Origin: Planctomycetota bacterium
Lineage (GTDB): Bacteria > Planctomycetota > J058
Assembly (NCBI GenBank): GCA_023954375.1
Contig: JAMLIC010000006.1
Span: 1-18,971 of the forward strand
Reading direction: 5' to 3'
Length of the DNA: 18,971 bases
Every line of letters begins with the position of its first letter. The stretch's first letter is position 1. The notes beneath the pieces were generated by a model. It was given only the letters and a program-made list of their open reading frames with translations. It was not told where the DNA came from and did not search any database. The position numbers and the translations under genes were made by a program. Shown in pieces: positions 279 to 15,914 of this stretch.

Positions 279-1742
279 CTATGAGTGAAGCCGGAGGTAG
301 CGGTCGAGCGCCTGCGCCGCCGGCGGCGTGAGCCGCCCGAAGCGCACGCCGACCAGGTAGCGCCCGTCGTCCTCGCGGGAGACCGAGCGCACGTCGCCGT
401 CCGCCTCGACGACCACGTCCTCGAGCGCGAGCGACAGGCGCAGGCGGGCGCCGATGAGGAGCGGGTGATCGAGCTCCAGGCGCGCGCCGTCGTGCGAGAG
501 GTCGCGCGTCCGGCTGGCCGTCAGCTCGCGCGGCACCCCGAGCAGGTCGTCGTACTCGCCCACGTTGACCAGCGTCAGCGCCTGCACCCGCGGCTCGTGG
601 CGCCGCTCCTGCGGCGCCGCCGGCGGCCGGCGTCGCCGGGCCCCGCCCTGCCACCACGGGCGCTCGCGCGCCTCCGGCCGCGCGGCCCGCGCGAAGCGCT
701 GCGGGTCGCGCGCGTGGCGCGCGGCCTCCTCGGCCGTCACCTGCCCCGTCCGCACGAGCGCCTCGAGCGAGTCGTCGAGCAGGATCATCCCCTCGCCGGC
801 GACCTGGATCGCGCTGCGCAGCTCGTGCGTGCGCCCCCCCCGGATCAGCGCCGAGATCGCGGGCGACTGGAGCATCACCTCGCAGGCCGGGAGGCGGCCC
901 TTCCCGGTGCGCTCGTCGACGAGCACCTGGCTGACGACGGCGCGCAGCGACTGGGAGAGCATGGCCCTGGCCAGCGGGAGCTCGTCGCTCTCGAACAGGT
1001 CGAGGATCCGCTCCACGGTCTGGCCGGCGTCGTTGGCGTGCAGCGTGGCCAGCACCAGGACCCCCGTCTCGGCGGCCGTCAGGGCCGCGCGCACGGTCTC
1101 CAGGTCGCGCAGCTCGCCCACGAGGAGCACGTCCGGGTCCTCGTGCAGGCTGTCGATCACCCCCTGGTGGAAGGTCGGCACGTCCACGCCCACGGCGCGC
1201 TGCTGCACCAGCGAGCGCCCCGAGGCGTGCTGGTACTCGAGGGGGTCCTCGATGGTGATGATGTTCAACGCCTCGGCCTCGGCGAGCCGGCGCGTCAGCG
1301 CCGCGAGGGTGGAGGTCTTGCCGGTCCCCGTGGGGCCGGTCACGAGCACGAGCCCGGACCGGAGCTCGGCGAGTCGCACGACCACCGGGGGGAGGCGCAG
1401 CTCCTCGAGCGACGGCACGGCCCCGGCGAGCGGCCGGAGCGCGAGGGCGAGGCCCGTCCGCTGCCGGTAGGCGTGCCCGCGCCACCGCGCGCCGCCGCCG
1501 TCGACCACCGAGAACTCGAGGTAGCCCCGGGCGTCGAGGCGCGCCTGGCCGCCCTCCGGCAGGAGCCCGGCCAGGAGGCCCCGCAGGGCGCCGTCGTCGA
1601 GGGCGGCGCTCCCCTCGACCTCGATCAGCTCGCCCTGCAGGCGCATGCGCGGCCGCAGCCCTGCCTGGAGGTGCAGGTCCGAGCAGTGGAGCTCGAACGT
1701 GCGCTTCATCAGCCCGCCGAGCGTCGCTCCGAAGCTGGTCAT
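279..1742 (-). CDS. PilT-family (type IV pilus retraction-type, GspE/VirB11 superfamily) hexameric ATPase fused to a C-terminal PilZ domain.
   Basis: PilT core motifs: SDLHL, Walker A GPTGTGKTST, Asp box ITIEDPLEY, and His box TLHAND. The C-terminal ~110 aa carry canonical PilZ motifs RRHEPR (RRxxxR), then DLSHDG (DxSxxG) 30 aa later. The ATG lies 1 nt after the upstream gene's TGA. Confidence 0.85.
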   Translation of the reverse strand: MTSFGATLGGLMKRTFELHCSDLHLQAGLRPRMRLQGELIEVEGSAALDDGALRGLLAGLLPEGGQARLDARGYLEFSVVDGGGARWRGHAYRQRTGLALALRPLAGAVPSLEELRLPPVVVRLAELRSGLVLVTGPTGTGKTSTLAALTRRLAEAEALNIITIEDPLEYQHASGRSLVQQRAVGVDVPTFHQGVIDSLHEDPDVLLVGELRDLETVRAALTAAETGVLVLATLHANDAGQTVERILDLFESDELPLARAMLSQSLRAVVSQVLVDERTGKGRLPACEVMLQSPAISALIRGGRTHELRSAIQVAGEGMILLDDSLEALVRTGQVTAEEAARHARDPQRFARAARPEARERPWWQGGARRRRPPAAPQERRHEPRVQALTLVNVGEYDDLLGVPRELTASRTRDLSHDGARLELDHPLLIGARLRLSLALEDVVVEADGDVRSVSREDDGRYLVGVRFGRLTPPAAQALDRYLRLHS

Positions 1743-1743
1743 C

Positions 1744-3090
1744 TCACGCCTCCTCGCCGGCGCGCAGGACGCGCGCCGGGTCGAGCGCCAGGGGCAGCGC
1801 GTCGGCCGCGGCGACCTTGCCGGACCGCACCAGCCCCACGAGGGCGTCGTCGAGCATGCTCATCCCCTCCTTGCCCGAGGCCTGCATGACCCCCTGCAGC
1901 TGGTGCACCAGGTCCTCGCGGATCAGGCGGGCCACCGCGGGGGTCGCGACGAGCACCTCGGTCGCGAGGTGCTGACGGAGCCCGTCCGTGCCCGGGAGCA
2001 GGTGCTGGCTGACGACCAGCCGGAGCACGCTCGCGAGCATGCCGCGGACCATCGTCCGCTTGCGCCCCGTGTAGGCGTCGAGCACGCGCAGCACGCTCCG
2101 GTGCGCGCCGCTCGTGTGCAGGGTGCCGAGCACCAGGTGGCCCGTCTCGGCCGCAGTCAGGGCGGCCATGATCTGGTCGGGGGTGGCAAGCTCGGCCAGC
2201 ACGATCACGTCCGGGTTCTCCCGGACGACCGAGCGCAGCCCCTCGGTGTAGCTCGCGACGTGCGAGCCCACCTCGCGCTGGCTGATCAGGCAGGTGCGGC
2301 TCGGCAGCACGTACTCGATCGGCCGCTCGAGCGTGACCACGTGGCTGCGCCGGGTCTGGTTGAAGAGCTCGATGACGGCGGCCAGCGTCGTGGTCTTGCC
2401 GCTCCCGCGCGGGCCCGTGACCAGCACCAGCCCACGCTTCAGCCGGGGCACCTGCGTGAGGATCGGGGGGAGGGCCAGCCAGTCGTGCTCGGGGACCGCC
2501 TCGGGGATCCGCCGCACGGCCGCGCTCGGCCCGCGCGACTGCATGAACAGGCCCAGCCTGAAGCGCCCGATCCCCTCGCGCGGCAGGTGCACGAGCAGGC
2601 TCCGCTCGCGCTCGAGCTCGGCCCGCTGCTCCGCCGTGAGCGCCGACTCGATCAGCGCGCGGCAGCGCTCCGGCTCGAGCGGCCGCGGCGCGAGGCTGAC
2701 CAGCCGGCCGGCGATCCGGGCGTTGATGCGCGCCCCGGGCGTCAGGTGCAGGTCGGTGGCGCCGACCTCGACCTGGATGCGGAGGAGCTCGTCGAGGTCC
2801 GCCGCCTCGGCGCGCTCCGCCACCGCCTTGCGCGAGAAGTGCCCGCCCTCACCGCCGCCCTCGACCCGCCGCTGGCAGGCGAGCAGGCGCTCGAGGGAGG
2901 GCCGGGAGACGAGCCCCTCGTCGACCAGCAGGTCGCCCAGGAAGCGGGGCGGGTCCTGCGTGGCCTGGAGCTCGAGGCACCGCGCGACCTCCGCCTCCTC
3001 CACCAGGCCGTAGCGGACCGCGAGCTCACCCAGCTGCTTGCACCCGGGCGCCTCCCGGGGCTCCCGACCGACTTCCACTGCGCTCCCCAT
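1744..3090 (-). CDS. PilT-like ATPase with an N-terminal MshEN / T2SSE_N-type domain (putative c-di-GMP receptor).
   Basis: Walker A GPRGSGKTT, Asp box VTLERPIEY, His box TLHTSGA. The N-terminus has two tandem 24-residue motifs, QLGELAVRYGLVEEAEVARCLELQ and RFLGDLLVDEGLVSRPSLERLLACQ. These match the MshEN c-di-GMP-binding consensus RLGxxLLxxGLIxxxxLxxxLxxQ. Start chosen at the ATG at 3090, which has GGAGGTG 7 nt upstream. The ORF track extends to 3168 but that stretch lacks an SD. Confidence 0.8.
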   Translation of the reverse strand: MGSAVEVGREPREAPGCKQLGELAVRYGLVEEAEVARCLELQATQDPPRFLGDLLVDEGLVSRPSLERLLACQRRVEGGGEGGHFSRKAVAERAEAADLDELLRIQVEVGATDLHLTPGARINARIAGRLVSLAPRPLEPERCRALIESALTAEQRAELERERSLLVHLPREGIGRFRLGLFMQSRGPSAAVRRIPEAVPEHDWLALPPILTQVPRLKRGLVLVTGPRGSGKTTTLAAVIELFNQTRRSHVVTLERPIEYVLPSRTCLISQREVGSHVASYTEGLRSVVRENPDVIVLAELATPDQIMAALTAAETGHLVLGTLHTSGAHRSVLRVLDAYTGRKRTMVRGMLASVLRLVVSQHLLPGTDGLRQHLATEVLVATPAVARLIREDLVHQLQGVMQASGKEGMSMLDDALVGLVRSGKVAAADALPLALDPARVLRAGEEA

Positions 3091-3181
3091 CCTGCCACCT
3101 CCGCGATGTCGGCGGGGCTTCGCAAGCCGCGCGCCGCGCGCAACTGCAAGGCAGGCGAGGGGTGTCATCGGCGCGCGACGC

Positions 3182-8256: not shown

Positions 8257-9576
8257 CTACAGGCCGTCGAGCGCCCCGCGGCTGTCCCCGAAGCTGGTCG
8301 CGCGCGCGCCCGCCCGCTGGAGGATCGACACGTAGAGGTTGCACAGCGGCGTCTCGGGCGCGAGGCGCAGGTGCCTCCCGCCGTGCACCGAGCCGCCGCC
8401 GCGCCCGCAGAGGAGGACCGGCAGGTCGTGGTGGTCGTGGCGGTCGCCGTCGCGGATCGCGCTGCCGAAGACGACCAGCGTGTTGTCGAGGAGCGTGCCC
8501 CGGCCCTCATCGACGGCCGCGAGCTGCTCGAGGAGGTAGGCGAGCTGCTCCACCTGGAAGCGGTTGATCCGCTGCAGCTTCGCCTGGCGCTCCGCATCGC
8601 CGCCGTGGTGCGACAGGTCGTGGTGCCCCTCCGGCACGCCGAGGAAGCGGTAGCTCCGGTTGCTGCCCGCGTTGGCCGTCATGAACGTCGCCACGCGCGT
8701 CGTGTCGGTCTGGAAGGCCAGGCGCACGATGTCGTACATGCGGCGGATGTGCTCGCCGTAGTCGCCCGCCGCGCCGGTCGGCGGGGCGACCGGCGGCCCC
8801 TCGCTCCGGCGGCGCTGCGGCTTGCCCAGGCGCTTCTCGAGCGCGCGCACCGCCTCCATGTACTCCTCGAGCTTGCGCCGGTCCGCCGCGCCCAGGCGCG
8901 CCCGGACGCGCTTGGCGTCATCGAGGACGAGGTCGAGGACGGAGGCGCGCTGGCGGTCGCGCCGCGCGCGCTGGTCGGGCGTGAGCCCCTCGCCGTCGAG
9001 GAACAGCCGCTCGAACACGGCCCGCGGGTCGATCTCCTTGGCCACCGGCGTCGTCGGCCCGCTCCAGGCGATGTTCGACGAGTAGGCGCAGCTGTAGCCG
9101 GAGTCGCAGTTGCCCCCCTGCGCGCTCGGGTCGCAGCCGAGCTCGAGCGAGGGGAGCGGCGTCGCCTGGCCGACCGCCTGGGCGAGGACCTGGTCGACGG
9201 AGACGCCGTTGTGGATGTCGGCGCCGTCGGTCTTGCGCGGGTGCGCGCCGGTGAGGAACGCCGCGCCGGCCCGCGCGTGGTCGCCCGGCCCGTCGCCGTG
9301 CGCGCGCGCCCCGTCGAGGGTCAGCCCGGAGAGGACCGTGAGGTGCCGCCGGAAGGGCGCGAGCGGCTCGAGCGTGGGCGGCAGGGCGAAGTCGGCGCCG
9401 ATGCGCTCGGGCGTCCAGGCCGACATGTGCACGCCGTTGGGGAGGAACACGAACAGCGCCCGCACGGGCGGCCGGTCGGCGGCGCGGGCCGCGGGCAGGA
9501 GCGACTCGAGCAGCGGCAGGCCGAGCGTGGCCCCCGCCGCCCCGCGCAGGAACGTCCGCCGCGTGCACCTGCTCAC
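8257..9576 (-). CDS. DUF1552-family protein (Tat-signal periplasmic protein, the usual partner of PSCyt/PSD-type DUF1592 proteins).
   Basis: Twin-arginine signal SRCTRRTFLRGAAGATLGLPLLE is typical of DUF1552 N-termini. GTG start overlaps the upstream stop as GTGA at 9573-9576. Family assignment from recognised N-terminal architecture and gene pairing. Confidence 0.65.
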   Translation of the reverse strand: MSRCTRRTFLRGAAGATLGLPLLESLLPAARAADRPPVRALFVFLPNGVHMSAWTPERIGADFALPPTLEPLAPFRRHLTVLSGLTLDGARAHGDGPGDHARAGAAFLTGAHPRKTDGADIHNGVSVDQVLAQAVGQATPLPSLELGCDPSAQGGNCDSGYSCAYSSNIAWSGPTTPVAKEIDPRAVFERLFLDGEGLTPDQRARRDRQRASVLDLVLDDAKRVRARLGAADRRKLEEYMEAVRALEKRLGKPQRRRSEGPPVAPPTGAAGDYGEHIRRMYDIVRLAFQTDTTRVATFMTANAGSNRSYRFLGVPEGHHDLSHHGGDAERQAKLQRINRFQVEQLAYLLEQLAAVDEGRGTLLDNTLVVFGSAIRDGDRHDHHDLPVLLCGRGGGSVHGGRHLRLAPETPLCNLYVSILQRAGARATSFGDSRGALDGL

Positions 9577-11918
9577 CGGGCCCCCTTCGCCGCGCGCCGC
9601 TTCTGGAACGCGTCGAGGCGCGTCACGCCCACGACGAGGTCCGCCAGGCCCGGGTCCGGCCCGAGCGCCTCGAGCAGCGCGTCGAGCGCGCCCTCGTCGG
9701 CGGCCACGGGCCCGCGGCCGAGCCCGAAGACCATGAGCTTCTTCGCCAGGGCGCGCGCGAGGTCGCGCGAGCGGCCGCGCAGGTAGCCGCGGAGCCCGTC
9801 GACGCCCATGAAGGTCAGCCCGCCGGGGAGGACGCCCGCGTCGTCGATCGGCAGCCCCTCGTCCTGCTCGCGCCACGCGCCCACCGCGTCGAAGCGCTCG
9901 AGCCCGAAGCCGAGCGGGTCGAGCCGCGCGTGGCAGCCGGCGCAGGCGGGGTCGGCCCGGTGCCGCTCGAGGCGCGCGCGCAGCGTCTTGCCGGTGGCGG
10001 GCCCGTCCTCCTTCAGGCTGTCCATCCCGGGCAAGGGCGGCGGGGGCGGGTCGTCGAGCAGCACCTCGAGCACCCAGCGCCCGCGCTTCACGGGCGACGT
10101 GCGCGTCGGGTTCGAGGTGGCCGTGAGCACGCTCGCGTGGCCGAGGAGCCCCCGGCGGACGGGCGGCGCGTCGACGCGCACGAAGTCGGGCCCGCGCACG
10201 CCCCGGATGCCGTAGTGCCGGGCCAGGCGCTCGTTGACGAACGTGTACGGCGCGTCGAGGAGCTCGCTCACCGGGCGGTTGCCGCGCAGGACCGCCTCGA
10301 ACAGGCGCGCGCTCTCCTCCTTCATCGCCGCCCGCAGCGGCTCGTCGAAGCCGGGGAAGCTCGCCGGGTCCGGCGCGGCCGTGTCGAGGCGCCGGAGCTG
10401 GAGCCACTGGGTGGCGAACTGCTGCACGAAGCGGCCCGCCTTCGGGTCGGCCAGGAGCCGGCGCGCCTGGGCCTCGAGCTGGTCGCGGAGCCCCCCCGCC
10501 TGGGCCGCGCGCAGGAGCTCCTCGTCGGGCAGGCTCACGTGCAGGTAGTAGGAGAGGCGCGTGGCGAGCTCGTGGTCGGCCAGCGGCTGCGCGCCGGGGT
10601 GCGGCGGCTCGCCCGGCCGCGGGCGCGCGGCGTCGAGCTCGAAGCGGAAGAGGAAGTGCGGCGAGCAGAGGACCGCCGTCAGCGCGAGCTGCATGGCCCG
10701 CTCGAAGCTCTCGCCGTCGGCCATCGCCTGGTCGACGTGCCTGGCGTAGCGCTCGAGCTCGTCCGACTTCGCCGGCCGGCGGAAGGCCCGGGTGACGAGC
10801 GGGCCCAGGACCTCCCGGGCGACGGCGCGCCGCTGCACGGGGCGCGCGTTGTCGGCCGGCCGCTTCGTCAGGTAGGTGCGGTGCGCCCAGGGCAGCGGCG
10901 GCGCCTCGACCGGCCCCTCGAGCTCGACCCAGGCGACCGCGAGGTTACGGTCGCGCTGCGAAGGGTCGGCGGCGCCCGGGTCGTAGAAGTCGTTGACGAA
11001 GGCCGCCGCGAGGTCGTGGTCGCCGGCGCGCAGGCGGGTCCGCGCCTCGTAGACGCCCGGGTCGTCGACGGTCGCGCGCACGTCGAAGGTCTCGAGCGCG
11101 CGGCCGTCCACCCGGAGCGCCATCCGCGCCGGGTCGGGGCCCGCCTGCATGCCGTAGGCGCGCGCCCGGACGACGTACTCGCCCTCGTACGGCGCGCGCA
11201 CGCGGACCACGTAGGCGCCGTTCGACCAGAGCGTGCCGAAGCCGTCGCGGAAGTTGCCGTCGGAGCCCTCGCGCCGGGCCGACTCGACCGACACCCGCTC
11301 GCGCACCGGCTTGAAGTCGAGGAACGCGGCCCGGGCCACCGCCTCGCCGGCCGCGAGGTACTTCTCCAGCAGGAGCGGCGGGATCGACAGGACGTCGCCG
11401 ATCGTGTCGAAGCCGTAGCCGACGTCGTCGTCGGGGAAGGTCCGGGCCGGGGCCAGCTCGACGCGCAGCATGTCCTGGACGGTGAAGTCGTACTCGGCCC
11501 GGTTGAGCCGCCGCAGCGTCACACGCCCGGGGTCGAACGGCCCGGCCGGGGCGGCGGCGCCGCCGAGGGCGCCCCGCACCCAGGCGATCACCGCCTTGAC
11601 CTCCTCGGCCGACGGGCGCGGGCGGTCCTCGGGCGGCATGTCGCCAGCGTGCAGGCGCTCGAGGACGCCCGTCCAGGCCTTCCGCTCGCGGAGGACGGCC
11701 GCGCGGTCGGCGAAGCCGTCGAGCGCCAGGTCCCCCTCGCGCTCGCCGCGCCCGTGGCACTCGAAGCAGTGGCGCCGGAGGAAGGGGAGCACGACGCGGG
11801 CGAAGCCCGCCTCGTCACCGGCGGCGGGGTCGGCCTCGGCCGCCGCCGGGCGGGGCCACAGGGGCAGGGCCGCGGCGAGCGCGGCCAGGGGCACGAGGAG
11901 CAGGGCGCGGCGCGGCAT
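9573..11918 (-). CDS. Secreted multi-domain DUF1592/DUF1595/DUF1587/DUF1588-type (Planctomycete PSCyt/PSD-like) protein with an N-terminal c-type haem-binding motif.
   Basis: Signal peptide MPRRALLLVPLAALAAALPLWPRPAAA, then CFECHG (CxxCH) ~40 aa later. Large ~780-aa body. Paired with and translationally coupled to the DUF1552 gene downstream, the canonical arrangement for this family. Confidence 0.6.
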   Translation of the reverse strand: MPRRALLLVPLAALAAALPLWPRPAAAEADPAAGDEAGFARVVLPFLRRHCFECHGRGEREGDLALDGFADRAAVLRERKAWTGVLERLHAGDMPPEDRPRPSAEEVKAVIAWVRGALGGAAAPAGPFDPGRVTLRRLNRAEYDFTVQDMLRVELAPARTFPDDDVGYGFDTIGDVLSIPPLLLEKYLAAGEAVARAAFLDFKPVRERVSVESARREGSDGNFRDGFGTLWSNGAYVVRVRAPYEGEYVVRARAYGMQAGPDPARMALRVDGRALETFDVRATVDDPGVYEARTRLRAGDHDLAAAFVNDFYDPGAADPSQRDRNLAVAWVELEGPVEAPPLPWAHRTYLTKRPADNARPVQRRAVAREVLGPLVTRAFRRPAKSDELERYARHVDQAMADGESFERAMQLALTAVLCSPHFLFRFELDAARPRPGEPPHPGAQPLADHELATRLSYYLHVSLPDEELLRAAQAGGLRDQLEAQARRLLADPKAGRFVQQFATQWLQLRRLDTAAPDPASFPGFDEPLRAAMKEESARLFEAVLRGNRPVSELLDAPYTFVNERLARHYGIRGVRGPDFVRVDAPPVRRGLLGHASVLTATSNPTRTSPVKRGRWVLEVLLDDPPPPPLPGMDSLKEDGPATGKTLRARLERHRADPACAGCHARLDPLGFGLERFDAVGAWREQDEGLPIDDAGVLPGGLTFMGVDGLRGYLRGRSRDLARALAKKLMVFGLGRGPVAADEGALDALLEALGPDPGLADLVVGVTRLDAFQKRRAAKGAR

Positions 11919-11982: not shown

Positions 11983-12966
11983 CTACTCCCGCCCGGGCCC
12001 GAGCAGGTCGACGGCGAGCGTGCCGACGCCGTGCCCGTCCGACCAGTTGCCCAGGTGACCCCAGAGGAAGACGCCGCGCCGGAGCTCGTCGGAGAGGGGG
12101 GCCAGGGCCGCCTCGGACCAGGCGCGCGCAAGAGAGAGGAGCGGGCGCCCGTCCTGGTGGACCTTGAGGCCCCAGCCGGCGACGTCGACCCGCAGGTCGA
12201 GCACGAGGGGCTCGGCCGGCCGCGGGCGGAGCTCGAAGCGCTCGAGCACCTCCACGCCGGGCGTGCGCGGCTGCCCGGGGGGCGGGTCGTGCACCAGGTC
12301 GGCCCCGGGGGGCTTGTCGCGGTTGACGACGCGCACGAGCCCCAGCACCCGCCCGTCGCGCCGCACCTGGAGCGTGACCCACCACGCGCCCGGCTCGAGC
12401 TGCCGCGCGGCCTCGATCGGATGGCCCGCGGCCCGCACGCCGAGCTCGTAGAAGAAGCCGGCGGCCTCGCGGAACCCGTGGCCCCGCTCCCAGTCGGCCA
12501 GGCCGGAGGCGTCGCGGGCGACCTCGGCGGCGCAGGTCCAGCGCACGGCGAGCGGCAGGGCGCGGCGCTCCCGGTCGAAGAGGCCGGCGCGCTCCCAGTC
12601 GCTCGTCGGGCGGGGGCGCGAGGTGTAGACGCCGTCCTCGCCCCGGGCGAGGCCGTCCGCCGGGGGCTGCACGTCGAAGGTCAGGCGCGTGGCCCCCCGC
12701 GACCGCCCGGCGGGCTCGGACGCCGCCGGCTCGGGCGTCACCGGCTCGGGCGCGGGCCCGGGCGCTGCCGGCCCGGGCGCCGCCGGCCCGGGCGTCGCCG
12801 GCCCGGCCTCGTCGGCCGACGCCGGCCTGGCGTCGCGTGGCGCCTCCGGCGTCGCCGCGGCCGCTGCCGGCCCGGCCTGGGGCGGCGCCGGCGACGTCCC
12901 CGCCGACGGGCCGCGGCCGACGCGCAGCGCGGCGACGGCCGCGACCGCCGCCACCACGAGCACGGC
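11983..12966 (-). CDS. TM helix + Pro/Ala-rich linker + ~250-aa extracytoplasmic domain. Almost certainly the C-terminal part of the Ser/Thr kinase gene, read in the -1 frame.
   Basis: Frame with near-100% GC3 encodes AVLVVAAVAAVAAL (a TM helix), then PGPAAPGPAAPGPAPEPVTPEP, then a structured domain ending at a TAG at 11983-11985. Upstream of ~12970 this frame becomes Arg/Gly-rich nonsense. The true 5' boundary of this segment is approximate. Confidence 0.55.
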   Translation of the reverse strand, partial: AVLVVAAVAAVAALRVGRGPSAGTSPAPPQAGPAAAAATPEAPRDARPASADEAGPATPGPAAPGPAAPGPAPEPVTPEPAASEPAGRSRGATRLTFDVQPPADGLARGEDGVYTSRPRPTSDWERAGLFDRERRALPLAVRWTCAAEVARDASGLADWERGHGFREAAGFFYELGVRAAGHPIEAARQLEPGAWWVTLQVRRDGRVLGLVRVVNRDKPPGADLVHDPPPGQPRTPGVEVLERFELRPRPAEPLVLDLRVDVAGWGLKVHQDGRPLLSLARAWSEAALAPLSDELRRGVFLWGHLGNWSDGHGVGTLAVDLLGPGRE

Positions 12967-14075
12967 CGCGGCCGCGCCCGCCCGGGGGCGGCGCCCGCCT
13001 GACCGGAGGTGCGCGCGACCGGCGCGGGCGCGCGCAGCGCCTCCTCGATCGCCGCGAGGAGGGCGCCCGGACCGGGATGGCGGCGGGCCGCCTCGGGCTC
13101 CATCGCGCGCTGCACGAGCGCCACGGCGCGCTCGGAGAGCCCGGGGCGACGCCGCGCGAGGTCGCCCGGGGCGCCCCGGCTGCGCAGCGGCGGCGCGCCG
13201 GTGAGGAGCGCGTAGAGCGTGGCGCCGAGGCCGTAGACGTCGACGCGCGCGTCGAGGTCGGGGGCCCCCGCGATCTGCTCCGGCGCCATGAAGGCCAGCG
13301 TGCCCACGGCCACGCCGGTGAGGGTCAGCCGGTCCGCGCCGGTCTGGCTGCGCGCCAGCCCCAGGTCGCCCAGCTTGGCCCGCCCCCCGGGGGTGAGGAA
13401 CAGGTTCGTCGGCTTCACGTCGCGATGGACGAGGCCGGCCGCCTCCAGCGCCGCGAGGCCCAGCGCGGCGTCGCGCGCCAGCTCCAGCGCGCGGCGCTCG
13501 GGCAACGCGCCGCCCGCCCGGGCCAGGAGGCCCTGCGCGTCCCCGCCGGTCATCAGCTCCATGGCGATGTAGGGCTGCCCGTCGAGCTCCCCCGCGGAGT
13601 AGCAGGTGATCACGTGCGGGTCGTTCACGGCGGCCAGCACGCGCGCCTCGCGCAGGAAGCGCCGCCGCGCCCCGGGGTCGGCCGCGAGGGCGGGGGCGAG
13701 GAGCTTCACGGCCACGTCGCGCGCGAGCGCGCGCTCGCGGGCCCGGAAGACGCGCCCCATCCCCCCCTGCCCGAGCGGGGCCAGGAGGTCGAACCCGCCG
13801 AGCGTCCGCGGGAGGCCCTCCGGCGCGGGCCCCGCGCCGGTCGTCGCCGGCGGCGCGGTCGCGCCGGCGCGGACCTCGCGCAGCAGGTCGGCCAGCAGCG
13901 CCTCCGGCACGTCCAGCCAGAACGCGAAGAGGCCGGCGCTCAGGTCCCCCTCGTCCGGGCGGCCGGCGAGCGCCTCGCGCGCGTGGGCCACCGCCTCGGG
14001 CGGCGCGAGGTCGCGGGCCTGGAGGCGGCGCAGCGCCTCCTCCCACTCGGCCCGGGCGCCGACGAGGGCGCTCAC
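12738..14075 (-). CDS. Hanks-type Ser/Thr protein kinase: ~95-aa N-terminal extension plus catalytic domain. The frame decays into an Arg-rich tail after a C5 homopolymer, consistent with a frameshift or sequencing indel.
   Basis: Gly loop LGQGGMGRVF, VAVK (catalytic Lys), HRDVKPTNLFL, DLGLAR, GTLAFMAPE. GTG start at 14075 overlaps the ECF sigma stop as GTGA. After ...AIEEALRAPAPVARTSGQAGAAP the frame gives RPRPCSWWRRSRPS... with reduced GC3. Confidence 0.75.
   Translation of the reverse strand: MSALVGARAEWEEALRRLQARDLAPPEAVAHAREALAGRPDEGDLSAGLFAFWLDVPEALLADLLREVRAGATAPPATTGAGPAPEGLPRTLGGFDLLAPLGQGGMGRVFRARERALARDVAVKLLAPALAADPGARRRFLREARVLAAVNDPHVITCYSAGELDGQPYIAMELMTGGDAQGLLARAGGALPERRALELARDAALGLAALEAAGLVHRDVKPTNLFLTPGGRAKLGDLGLARSQTGADRLTLTGVAVGTLAFMAPEQIAGAPDLDARVDVYGLGATLYALLTGAPPLRSRGAPGDLARRRPGLSERAVALVQRAMEPEAARRHPGPGALLAAIEEALRAPAPVARTSGQAGAAPGRARPRPCSWWRRSRPSPRCASAAARRRGRRRRRPRPGRQRPRRRRRRHATPGRRRPTRPGRRRPGRRRPGRQRPGPRPSR
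12755..12810 (-). repeat. About 3.5 tandem copies of a 15-bp unit (CCGGGCGNNGCCGGC) encoding (PGPAA)n in the kinase's extracytoplasmic linker.
   Basis: Direct tandem repeat visible on the plus strand (gctgccggcccgggc / gccgccggcccgggc / gtcgccggcccggcc). In-frame, so copy number could vary without breaking the ORF. Confidence 0.5.
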
Positions 14076-14821
14076 CGCCCGGCCTCGCGCGACAGGCGCA
14101 GCACCGCGTCGCGCTCCTGCGCCAGCGCCTCGGGGCGCGCCTCGAGCCAGCGCAGCCGGCGCTCCACCTCGTCCGCCAGCGCCTGACGCAGCCGCGTGGC
14201 CCGGACGTAGAGGGCGTTGCGCGTCAGGCCGAGCGCCGCGGCGACCTCGTCCGCGCCGGGGCGCACGGGGGCGAGCACCCACTCGCCGAGGAGGCGCTGG
14301 CCCGCCTCGTCCCCCTCCTGGCGCAGGCGCTCCTCGAGGGCGGCCACGGCGCGCCCCCACAGGCACTGGGCCCAGTCGCGCTCGAACGACGCCTCGGGGT
14401 CGGCGGCCGCGGGCTCGCCGGCCCCCCGGCCCAGCGCCGCCTCTGCGAGGACCTCCGCCGCCCCGTGCCCCTCGAGCCAGCCCGGCCGCTCACCGTCCGG
14501 CCGGGCCCGCTCGCGGCGCCACGCCTTGCGCCGGTGGTTGGCGAGGCAGCTCAGGAGGTAGGTGCGCAGGCGGCCGCGCCCGGCGTCCCAGGCGCCGAGG
14601 AGCCGGCCGTCCAGCCCGGCGACGAAGAAGTCCTGCAGCACGTCCAGCGCCTCCTGCGAGGCGCTCCCCGTGCGGCGCAGGTAAGCGTAGAGCGGCGGCC
14701 AGTACTCGCGGAAGAAGCGCTCCCAGGCCGCGCGCCAGCCCGGGGAGCCGGGGTTCGCGGCCTCCGCCACGAGCGAGGCGCTCGTGCGCGGGAAGCCGGC
14801 GTGCCGCGACTCGGGGTTCAC
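14072..14821 (-). CDS. ECF (extracytoplasmic function) sigma-70 family factor with N- and C-terminal extensions.
   Basis: Sigma region-2-like WERFFREYWPPLYAYLRRTG...ALDVLQDFFV and region-4 HTH-like GLTRNALYVRATRLRQAL. GTG start at 14821 is uncertain; the upstream sequence is low-GC and non-coding-like. The ORF-track N-terminus (to 15265) is antisense to the plus-strand lipoprotein gene and is rejected. Confidence 0.75.
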   Translation of the reverse strand: MNPESRHAGFPRTSASLVAEAANPGSPGWRAAWERFFREYWPPLYAYLRRTGSASQEALDVLQDFFVAGLDGRLLGAWDAGRGRLRTYLLSCLANHRRKAWRRERARPDGERPGWLEGHGAAEVLAEAALGRGAGEPAAADPEASFERDWAQCLWGRAVAALEERLRQEGDEAGQRLLGEWVLAPVRPGADEVAAALGLTRNALYVRATRLRQALADEVERRLRWLEARPEALAQERDAVLRLSREAGR

Positions 14822-14900
14822 ACGGAAGAGTTTACAGCTCGGGCCGCGAACCACGAAAGATCTCGCCGCCCACCGGATACCCAGGGCGAAGGAGGTCCCC
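14822..14900. promoter_or_regulatory. 79-bp divergent intergenic spacer between the ECF sigma gene (minus) and a lipoprotein gene (plus). Contains TTTACA (14831-14836) and the SD AAGGAGG (14887-14893) for the lipoprotein gene.
   Basis: Noticeably lower GC than the flanks. Near-consensus -35-like hexamer and a strong SD 7 nt before the ATG at 14901, read directly. No convincing -10 found. Confidence 0.4.
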
Positions 14901-15914
14901 ATGCACCGCGTCTCGCACGGCCTGATCGGCGTCGTCTTCTTCGGCCTCGTGGCCCTGGGCTGCGGCGACTCGAGCGGCTCGTCGCCGCTGCCGGGCGGCG
15001 CGCCGCCCCAGGTCCCGTCGTCGTTCGAGCCGTCGCCGCCGGCCCCGCCGGAGCCGCCGCCGCCGGCCCCGCCGTCGCCGCCGCCCGCGCCCCCGCCAGC
15101 CCCGCCCGCCGACGACCTGGCGCCCTCGAGCGACGACTTCTCGGACCCCGCCCGCCTCGGCGAGTGGCAGCGGATCCACCTGGTGGAGCAGTGGGGGTTC
15201 GACCAGGTCGAGGCGCTCGACGTGGGGACGACCCGCGCCGGGTGGCTGACGATGGTCCCCCACACCAGCTCCTGGTACGAGGACTACCGCGGCGAGCTCA
15301 TGTTCAAGGAGGTCGACGGCGACGTCGTGGTCACGACCCGCGTCCTGGCCACGAACCGGGCCGGGACGGGGGCCCCGAGCAGGTCCTACTCCCTGGCCGG
15401 GCTCATGGTCCGGGCGCCCCGCAACGTGACCCCGGCCACGTGGCAGCCGGGCGGCGAGAACTACGTGTTCCTGTCGATCGGCGCGGCCAACGCGCCGGGG
15501 CTCGCCCAGACCGAGGTCAAGACCACCGAGGGCAGCGTCTCCACGCTGACGATCGAGCAGGCCGCCGGCCTCGAGGCCCGCATCCGCGTCGCGCGCGTCG
15601 GGGCGGCGGTGATCACCCTCATCCGCGAGGAGGGGACGCCCTGGCGCGTCCACCGGCGCTTCGCCCGGCCCGACCTGCCCTCGACCCTGCAGGTGGGGCT
15701 GACCGTCTACACGGACTGGGAGACGGTGCAGACCTTCACGCCCCAGGAGCACAACACGACGCTCATCACCACGGGGACCCCCGACCTGCGCGCGCAGTTC
15801 GACTTCGTCACCTTCGCCAGGCCCGCCGTCCCCGCCGCCCTCGTCGGCCGGGACCTCGTCGACGCCGCCGACGTCTCCGACGCGGAGCTCCTGGCGTTCC
15901 TGGGCGACGACTGA
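14901..15914 (+). CDS. Hypothetical lipoprotein: signal peptide with lipobox LVALGC, a long Pro-rich linker, and a ~260-aa C-terminal domain predicted to be beta-rich.
   Basis: ATG with AAGGAGG SD. MHRVSHGLIGVVFFGLVALGCGDSSG. (PAPPxPPP)n linker. The domain has alternating hydrophobic beta-strand-like segments (YVFLSIG, VITLIRE, LQVGLTVYTDWE, FDFVTFARP). Family not recognised. Confidence 0.7.
   Translation: MHRVSHGLIGVVFFGLVALGCGDSSGSSPLPGGAPPQVPSSFEPSPPAPPEPPPPAPPSPPPAPPPAPPADDLAPSSDDFSDPARLGEWQRIHLVEQWGFDQVEALDVGTTRAGWLTMVPHTSSWYEDYRGELMFKEVDGDVVVTTRVLATNRAGTGAPSRSYSLAGLMVRAPRNVTPATWQPGGENYVFLSIGAANAPGLAQTEVKTTEGSVSTLTIEQAAGLEARIRVARVGAAVITLIREEGTPWRVHRRFARPDLPSTLQVGLTVYTDWETVQTFTPQEHNTTLITTGTPDLRAQFDFVTFARPAVPAALVGRDLVDAADVSDAELLAFLGDD

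Follow-up and report, generated by a model that had tools for sequence, protein, structure and literature searches.

A receptor Ser/Thr kinase gene of a Planctomycetota bacterium very probably divided between two reading frames by a frameshift

The stretch of DNA analysed here (18,971 nucleotides of contig JAMLIC010000006.1 in assembly GCA_023954375.1, from a Planctomycetota bacterium; hereafter the window) carries on its minus strand a Ser/Thr kinase open reading frame (ORF) followed, in a different frame, by an ORF for a hypothetical protein. The question this locus raises is whether these are two genes, as recorded at NCBI (MCO5166379.1 and MCO5166378.1), or two halves of one. We conclude that it is very likely a single gene, frameshifted in this assembly, that encodes a single-pass receptor Ser/Thr kinase, and that the annotation at NCBI as two proteins is probably wrong. 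At the 77.4% G+C of the window, long open frames are expected by chance in several frames, so that an ORF alone proves nothing.

One coding signature in two reading frames

On the minus strand, the G+C content of third codon positions (GC3) lies at 0.93-1.00 in the kinase frame between 14075 and ~13000, and at 0.95-1.00 in a second frame between ~13000 and 11983. The kinase-frame part of the gene (12990..14075, with 100% identity to MCO5166379.1) encodes a conserved N-terminal region of ~90 aa, a Hanks-type catalytic domain and a cytoplasmic juxtamembrane stretch. Its frame continues through ...APVARTSGQAGAAPGRARPRPCSWWRRSRPS... (also given as ...EEALRAPAPVARTSGQAGAAPGRARPRPCSWWRRSRPS...) up to the TGA at 12740-12738, with a read-through tail of 81 codons (12738..12983). 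The second frame is open throughout and from ~12985 onward reads ...RAGAAAAVLVVAAVAAVAALRVGRG...; it holds a transmembrane (TM) helix, AGAAAAVLVVAAVAAVAAL (12925..12981), which is the top 19-residue Kyte-Doolittle window of the repaired protein (2.53), a Pro/Ala-rich periplasmic linker of 76 aa with 20 Pro and 22 Ala (12697..12924), and a globular-looking ectodomain of ~235 residues (11983..12696) closed by the TAG at 11985-11983. The initial annotation of the window had described the second frame as having near-100% GC3 and encoding a TM helix, a Pro-rich linker and an ectodomain ending at 11983, and GC3, hydropathy and composition bear this out.

By GC3 and codon usage, the coding signature changes frame at 12963-13038, and the kinase-frame stop comes only at 12738. 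In a frame plot of the whole 19-kb window all other frame changes fall on gene boundaries, and the switch within the kinase is the sole anomaly. Codon usage was scored as a log-likelihood ratio (LLR) from a table built on 11 further genes of the window. The kinase frame is ahead by 136 nats over 13300-13000; in the overlap (12983-12742) the second frame leads by +38.8 nats, and in the ectodomain it leads by +250 nats. As a control, 370 windows of 80 codons were scored in their true frame versus the same shifted frame; the true frame won by a mean of +100.8 nats (sd 19.9, minimum +44.5), and the score was never <=0. If the kinase tail were truly coding, an LLR near -100 would be expected, as against the +38.8 observed. 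The tail is also composed of 47% Arg and 19% Pro over its 81 codons, as off-frame reading of GC-rich DNA will give, and, judged from the sequence, the kinase-frame tail 12738..12983 is most likely not real coding sequence. Of the two properties first attributed to this tail, its Arg-richness is plain and its lower GC3 holds in direction, but the contrast is smaller than implied, with 7 A/T-ending codons in the kinase frame vs 3 in the second frame among the 80 codons of the overlap.

When six full-length homologues were compared with the window by tblastn, every one (6/6) matched frame -1 with its kinase part and frame -3 with its ectodomain part. An exhaustive HMMER search with the ectodomain against 1.84 billion representative proteins recovered 26 proteins; a word-indexed search with the same query returned only itself and one fragment. 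Ten of the 11 matches of at least 596 aa with E <= 1e-4 were scanned against Pfam, P0020 (963 aa) being left out, and each of the ten (596-794 aa) has Pkinase at the N-terminus and the ectodomain at the C-terminus. In each of the 11 aligned homologues the second-frame domain forms the C-terminus of a single ORF, and the strongest hydrophobic window lies between kinase and ectodomain at the same relative position (11/11); an equivalent low-complexity linker is present in 10/11, P0004 having almost none. The order kinase, TM helix, ectodomain is spread over two frames in the window and becomes a single ORF only with one base added. It had been proposed that one extra C would join the halves, and indeed one C added at a run of five C residues (C5) gives an ORF of 697 aa, whose product is co-linear from end to end (98% query coverage, 43-54% identity) with P0003 (699 aa), P0005 (693 aa) and P0028 (725 aa).

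The four orthologous loci examined represent three orthologues (L002, from the Planctomycetota metagenome-assembled genome ABC1.64; L003, a Logan contig; and L004/L005), and in each a sigma70_r2 gene is followed directly by a kinase gene that is a single ORF. The expectation that orthologues would encode kinase, TM helix and ectodomain in one ORF is thus confirmed at these loci and among the ten long homologues with an N-terminal Pkinase domain. The central claim of the initial annotation, that the kinase coding signal passes to a second frame within one gene, is upheld by GC3, by the codon-usage LLR and by these single-ORF homologues.

Both halves of the gene are undamaged. The kinase half matches Pkinase (PF00069) with 131.3 bits vs a cut-off of 31.7 over residues 98-299, and the catalytic motifs GQGGMG, VAVK, HRDVKPTN, DLG and APE are all present in its translation, DLG being a variant of DFG that is found in 9/11 aligned homologues (P0008 has DFG and P0018 ELG). 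The ectodomain matches no Pfam or NCBIfam family, and every residue invariant in its own family is present. A model of it from a 20-sequence alignment has a predicted local distance difference test score (pLDDT) of 94.9 and a predicted template modelling score (pTM) of 0.92, and is a beta-sandwich of the concanavalin-A-like (ConA-like) class; the closest folds are L-type lectins (the Entamoeba lectin-like 5zbt, ERGIC-53, VIP36 and Emp47p) at 6-10% identity. On the strength of this modelled fold, carbohydrate sensing is a probable role of the periplasmic ectodomain. The intactness of the two halves means that the event that separated them is very recent or not biological.

We propose that the intact gene would encode, in order, the conserved N-terminal region, the Hanks-type kinase, the juxtamembrane stretch, the TM helix, the Pro/Ala linker and a periplasmic ConA-like lectin domain, and that it would be translationally coupled to the extracytoplasmic function (ECF) sigma gene that lies upstream. 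A net deficit of one base in the juxtamembrane segment 12963-13038 would shift the frame, and the sequence as written would then yield a soluble kinase of 445 aa that ends in 81 Arg-rich nonsense residues and lacks the TM helix, linker and sensor domain. In the intact system, by analogy, the lectin-like domain would sense a periplasmic glycan, the activated kinase would phosphorylate or otherwise activate the co-encoded ECF sigma factor, and the sigma factor would transcribe targets, among which the conserved divergent lipoprotein gene is a possible one.

Less likely alternatives: two genes, a maintained break or recoding

Several observations weigh against a single frameshifted gene. The NCBI pipeline accepted two separate genes, and the kinase-frame TGA forms with the annotated GTG a GTGA overlap at 12738-12741 that resembles that of coupled genes. 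The LLR of the overlap region (+38.8) is below that of typical coding windows, a shortfall from the control mean that we ascribe to the low complexity of the Pro/Ala linker. One distant relative at 32% identity (L006) is naturally split. Finally, no same-species sequence was found that could show the intact state: a scan of genome contigs gave no same-species genome and only L001 and L002, at 48-52% identity, a scan of metagenome contigs with the ectodomain found no relative, and exact look-up of the 445-aa and 252-aa products found no independent assembly on record, so that the intact allele is not observed.

One alternative is that of two genuine genes, as at NCBI, with a soluble kinase ending at 12738 and a separate protein that starts either at GTG 12741, as annotated (11983..12741, the 252-aa 'hypothetical protein' M9894_08440, MCO5166378.1, which has no TM helix), or at GTG 12963-12961. 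Beyond the annotation itself, the stop/start overlap and the split in L006, it can draw on the presence of in-frame GTG codons within the TM region; we nevertheless consider it very unlikely. Each close orthologue is one ORF, and a start at 12741 leaves the lectin domain without an export signal or anchor, although this domain lies beyond a TM helix in all relatives. The codon usage of 12742-12983 matches the second frame and not the kinase tail, so that with this start 240 nt with a good coding signature, those of the TM helix and linker, would go unused, and the tail that the soluble kinase would have to carry is the Arg-rich one typical of off-frame, GC-rich translation. The alternative start at 12963-12961 falls within the hydrophobic stretch (MLVVAAVAAVAAL...), which would then serve as a short anchor or signal at the N-terminus; it requires an out-of-frame overlap of 225 nt and an anchor of 13 residues without N-terminal charge. 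Given the frame evidence, the GTGA overlap probably resembles translational coupling only by chance. Gene callers may have accepted two genes on account of it, and the Prokaryotic Genome Annotation Pipeline (PGAP) probably did not flag the frameshift because the ectodomain has no curated family.

The split relative repays comparison. In L006 (positions 3-2012 of a Logan contig from SRR11674044) the kinase, an unknown 200-aa product and a 314-aa product (P0022) are encoded by three genes with clean GC3 and tidy boundaries, so that a split architecture is possible in this receptor kinase family. However, the ectodomain gene of L006 has its own start, upstream of its own cytoplasmic N-terminus, a full TM helix, a linker and the ectodomain, and does not overlap its neighbour, whereas in the window the TM helix and most of the linker precede the annotated GTG at 12741, and the only upstream in-frame starts in the second frame are GTGs inside the hydrophobic core. 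Orthologues split into two proteins with a functional downstream start had been named at the outset as the observation that would count against one gene; no close orthologue is of this kind, and only the distant L006 is split. A further locus, L001 (positions 1-1294 of JAGQRJ010000260.1), has a homologue of the ectodomain that lacks kinase and TM helix and keeps part of the linker. It was rejected as an example of a stand-alone ectodomain gene, because its ORF meets, ~530 nt before the contig ends, a PAP2-like gene of the other strand that lacks its N-terminal part; the contig is probably rearranged or chimeric.

A more ambitious account, which we hold to be extremely unlikely, is that the break is real and maintained, a soluble kinase without a link to its sensor being made normally and the receptor restored by occasional -1 slippage or by reversible indels at C5 or at a nearby run of three G residues (G3), and, separately, that the intact family is an undescribed glycan-sensing ECF module. 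If true, the first part would amount to a switchable input to an ECF sigma factor, and the second to a module of sigma factor, kinase with its 90-aa region, lectin ectodomain and lipoprotein, in which the acidic sigma2.2 is such that control may differ from that of EcfP.

Least credible of all is that programmed recoding or a phase-variable switch, by a -1 slip or indel slippage at C5/G3, gives both the soluble kinase and a full-length receptor (which by recoding would span ...QAGAAPRAGAAAA...): a -1 shift at CCC CCG GG does restore the receptor frame and the downstream 106 nt fold at -82.8 kcal/mol (z = -2.0), but there is no X XXY YYZ slippery heptamer within 12963-13038, a slip on GCC CCC GGG puts CGG in the A site with its first base mismatched, the fold barely beats shuffles in 77% GC sequence (4/200 equal it), there is no Rfam match, no orthologue (L002, L003, L004/L005) needs a shift, the 0-frame product runs on for 81 codons with no stop soon past the site, and C5 is short for phase variation; 19 G/C runs of 6-8 nt elsewhere in the window leave the local frame intact. 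The lack of a heptamer, an Rfam element and conservation, together with the marginal z-score of the fold, led us to reject a programmed frameshift.

Site and origin of the break

In the frameshifted single gene, the defect is a net loss of one nucleotide, or of 3n+1, or a gain of 3n+2, within the interval 12963..13038 of the minus strand, as delimited by the change-point likelihood, runs and repeats. Between 13038 and 12963 this likelihood varies by no more than 3 nats, too little to fix the position of the indel; the TM core VLVV... begins at 12963 in the second frame and homology in the kinase frame extends to ~13035. The interval contains the C5 run (G5 on the plus strand) at which the initial annotation had placed the switch, although the run was put at ~12994-12998 and actually lies at 12984-12988, about 10 nt away. 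An added C at this run gives ...AAPRAGAAAAVLVV..., an added G at GGG 12994-12996 gives ...QAGRRPRAGAAAAVLVV..., with a positive juxtamembrane patch as in homologues, and a third route is the loss of a third copy at the tandem GGGC GGGC (~12976-12983). Runs of at least 5 G or C occur at 4.2 per kb and one is present in 20% of random 61-nt intervals, so the coincidence of the switch with C5 is weak evidence. Pinning the break to C5 specifically was given up, as codon likelihood does not separate the sites within 12963-13038. The exact 23-mer of the junction was not found in the other loci retrieved.

The initial annotation had offered either a frameshifted pseudogene or an indel error and had left the choice between them to further data; GC3 and the homologues support the frameshift, and the choice stays where it was, since sequence alone cannot separate a real mutation from an assembly error. 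We rate the two as roughly even, with a slight lean toward a real lesion or strain variant. If the base is absent from the organism, the gene would be a very recent pseudogene or a strain variant. None of the 19 runs of 6-8 G or C residues in the window, among them C7 at 13761-13767, within the kinase, and C8 at 834-841, disturbs its local frame, which makes homopolymer-error-prone sequencing a less likely cause. At 1-69 the window begins with a homopolymer block (C11, G14, C, G15, CCCC, GG, C11, G, C10) with nothing similar elsewhere in the window. A natural GC hairpin is one possible origin of this block, and poly-G junk from the terminus of a short-read contig is another; its poly-G-like character, a sign of short reads, was counted against a homopolymer-error-prone technology. 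In favour of an artefact, the sequence at the junction is self-complementary and of extreme GC content (the 106 nt that fold at -82.8 kcal/mol), and coverage and graph resolution are poor in sequence of this sort. An artefact also always appears recent, and this was counted on the same side.

The main value of these findings is to annotation. The gene is an ordinary frameshifted one and not new biology; it belongs to a class of signalling modules that is known, although this member had not been characterised. MCO5166379.1, with its nonsense Arg-rich tail, and MCO5166378.1 are most likely halves of one gene and should be treated as a pseudogene or assembly error. The analysis also defines an uncharacterised small family of planctomycetal receptor kinases, with ~25 relatives and a lectin-like periplasmic domain.

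The sigma-kinase locus and its known counterparts

The kinase gene is preceded by an ECF-type sigma-70 gene (14072..14821, minus strand; tentative start GTG 14821), whose stop TGA (14074-14072) forms with the GTG that opens the kinase gene (14075-14073) a 4-nt overlap, GTGA; the sigma and kinase genes of L003 likewise overlap by 4 nt. The product matches only generic models, Sigma70_r2 with 29.5 bits vs a cut-off of 24 and TIGR02937 with an E value of 1.6e-7, and is 58-63% identical to the sigma factors encoded ahead of the orthologous kinases in L002, L003 and L004. An acidic sigma2.2 motif, (E/D)xxDxxQ(D/E), is kept in 4/4 of these sequences (window 14072-14821; L002 3893-4591; L003 2132-2881; L004 3298-3999). 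The same four have an invariant RRTGS just upstream of this motif and a conserved tail of ~30 residues after sigma4. In the kinase, residues 1-90 (13800-14075, minus strand) are conserved in 9/11 aligned homologues without a Pfam match, with the pattern W..AL...P..A...A.E.LA.R....L.PAL.AF..D..E, and this region of ~90 residues could be a docking or sigma-binding module.

Divergent from the sigma-kinase pair is a lipoprotein gene (14901..15914, plus strand), whose translation begins with a signal peptide that has a lipobox-like LVALGC; its match to DUF1349 (ConA-like), at 18.9 bits, is weak and below the cut-off of 32.4. L002, L003 and L004 each have a homologous lipoprotein gene divergently upstream of the sigma-kinase pair. 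The intergenic region (14822-14900) and its orthologous counterparts share CTGTAA(A/G)AC upstream of the sigma gene (CTGCAAGAT in L004), and also GATCTTTC-like and GCT(A/G)TCCG-like elements, which are possible promoter parts. On the other side, immediately downstream of the kinase gene, 9573-11918 (minus strand) encodes a planctomycete-type PSCyt/PSD multi-domain protein (DUF1587/1592/1588/1595/1585, cytochrome c, CBM60), and a further ORF follows at 8257-9570 (minus strand). L001 and L002 have a pilT-like ATPase gene downstream of the kinase locus in place of the PSCyt/PSD gene, and two pilT-like genes are found at 279-3168 of the window.

Pairs of ECF sigma factor and kinase are known from ECF43, namely EcfP/PknT of Vibrio parahaemolyticus and EcfK/PknS of Xanthomonas citri, and from the planctomycetal ECF59-62; as in the window, the sigma gene is followed by that for a single-pass TM kinase with an extracytoplasmic sensor (PMC13147305, PMC7826278), and no anti-sigma gene was seen next to the pair in the window. 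The kinase-associated groups are ECF43, ECF59-62, ECF217, ECF267 and ECF283 (PMC7826278), and direct sigma-factor phosphorylation has been demonstrated for EcfP/PknT and EcfK/PknS (PMC13147305). ECF43 sigma factors typically have, in place of DxxD, an uncharged QTTA with a conserved phospho-Thr, where the sigma factor of the window has the acidic (E/D)xxDxxQ(D/E), and for this reason it was not filed under ECF43, a minority of whose members retain negative charge in sigma2.2 (PMC13147305); kinase control of the sigma factors of the present family may differ from that of EcfP. The kinase gene of the window is also broken, unlike those of the known pairs. The four orthologous loci, with their kinase, ECF sigma factor and conserved lipoprotein, fit the theme of kinase-regulated ECF sigma factors and do not change it.

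TM proteins make up 70-80% of the Ser/Thr kinases of Planctomycetota, where the majority cross the membrane once and have a periplasmic domain; the ConA-like DUF1080 is often found as that domain (PMC11032199). The single-pass kinases with DUF1080 have the topology proposed for the intact gene, with a cytoplasmic kinase, one TM helix and a periplasmic ConA-like beta-sandwich; the ectodomain of the window differs in that it belongs to no Pfam family and has L-type lectins as its nearest folds. As to the break itself, frameshifted bacterial genes, whether recent pseudogenes or products of indel errors at homopolymers and short repeats, have halves in different frames that each keep an intact coding signature, with the break in a G/C-rich run or repeat and the upstream frame running into an Arg-rich nonsense tail, and in this respect the kinase gene of the window shows nothing unusual.

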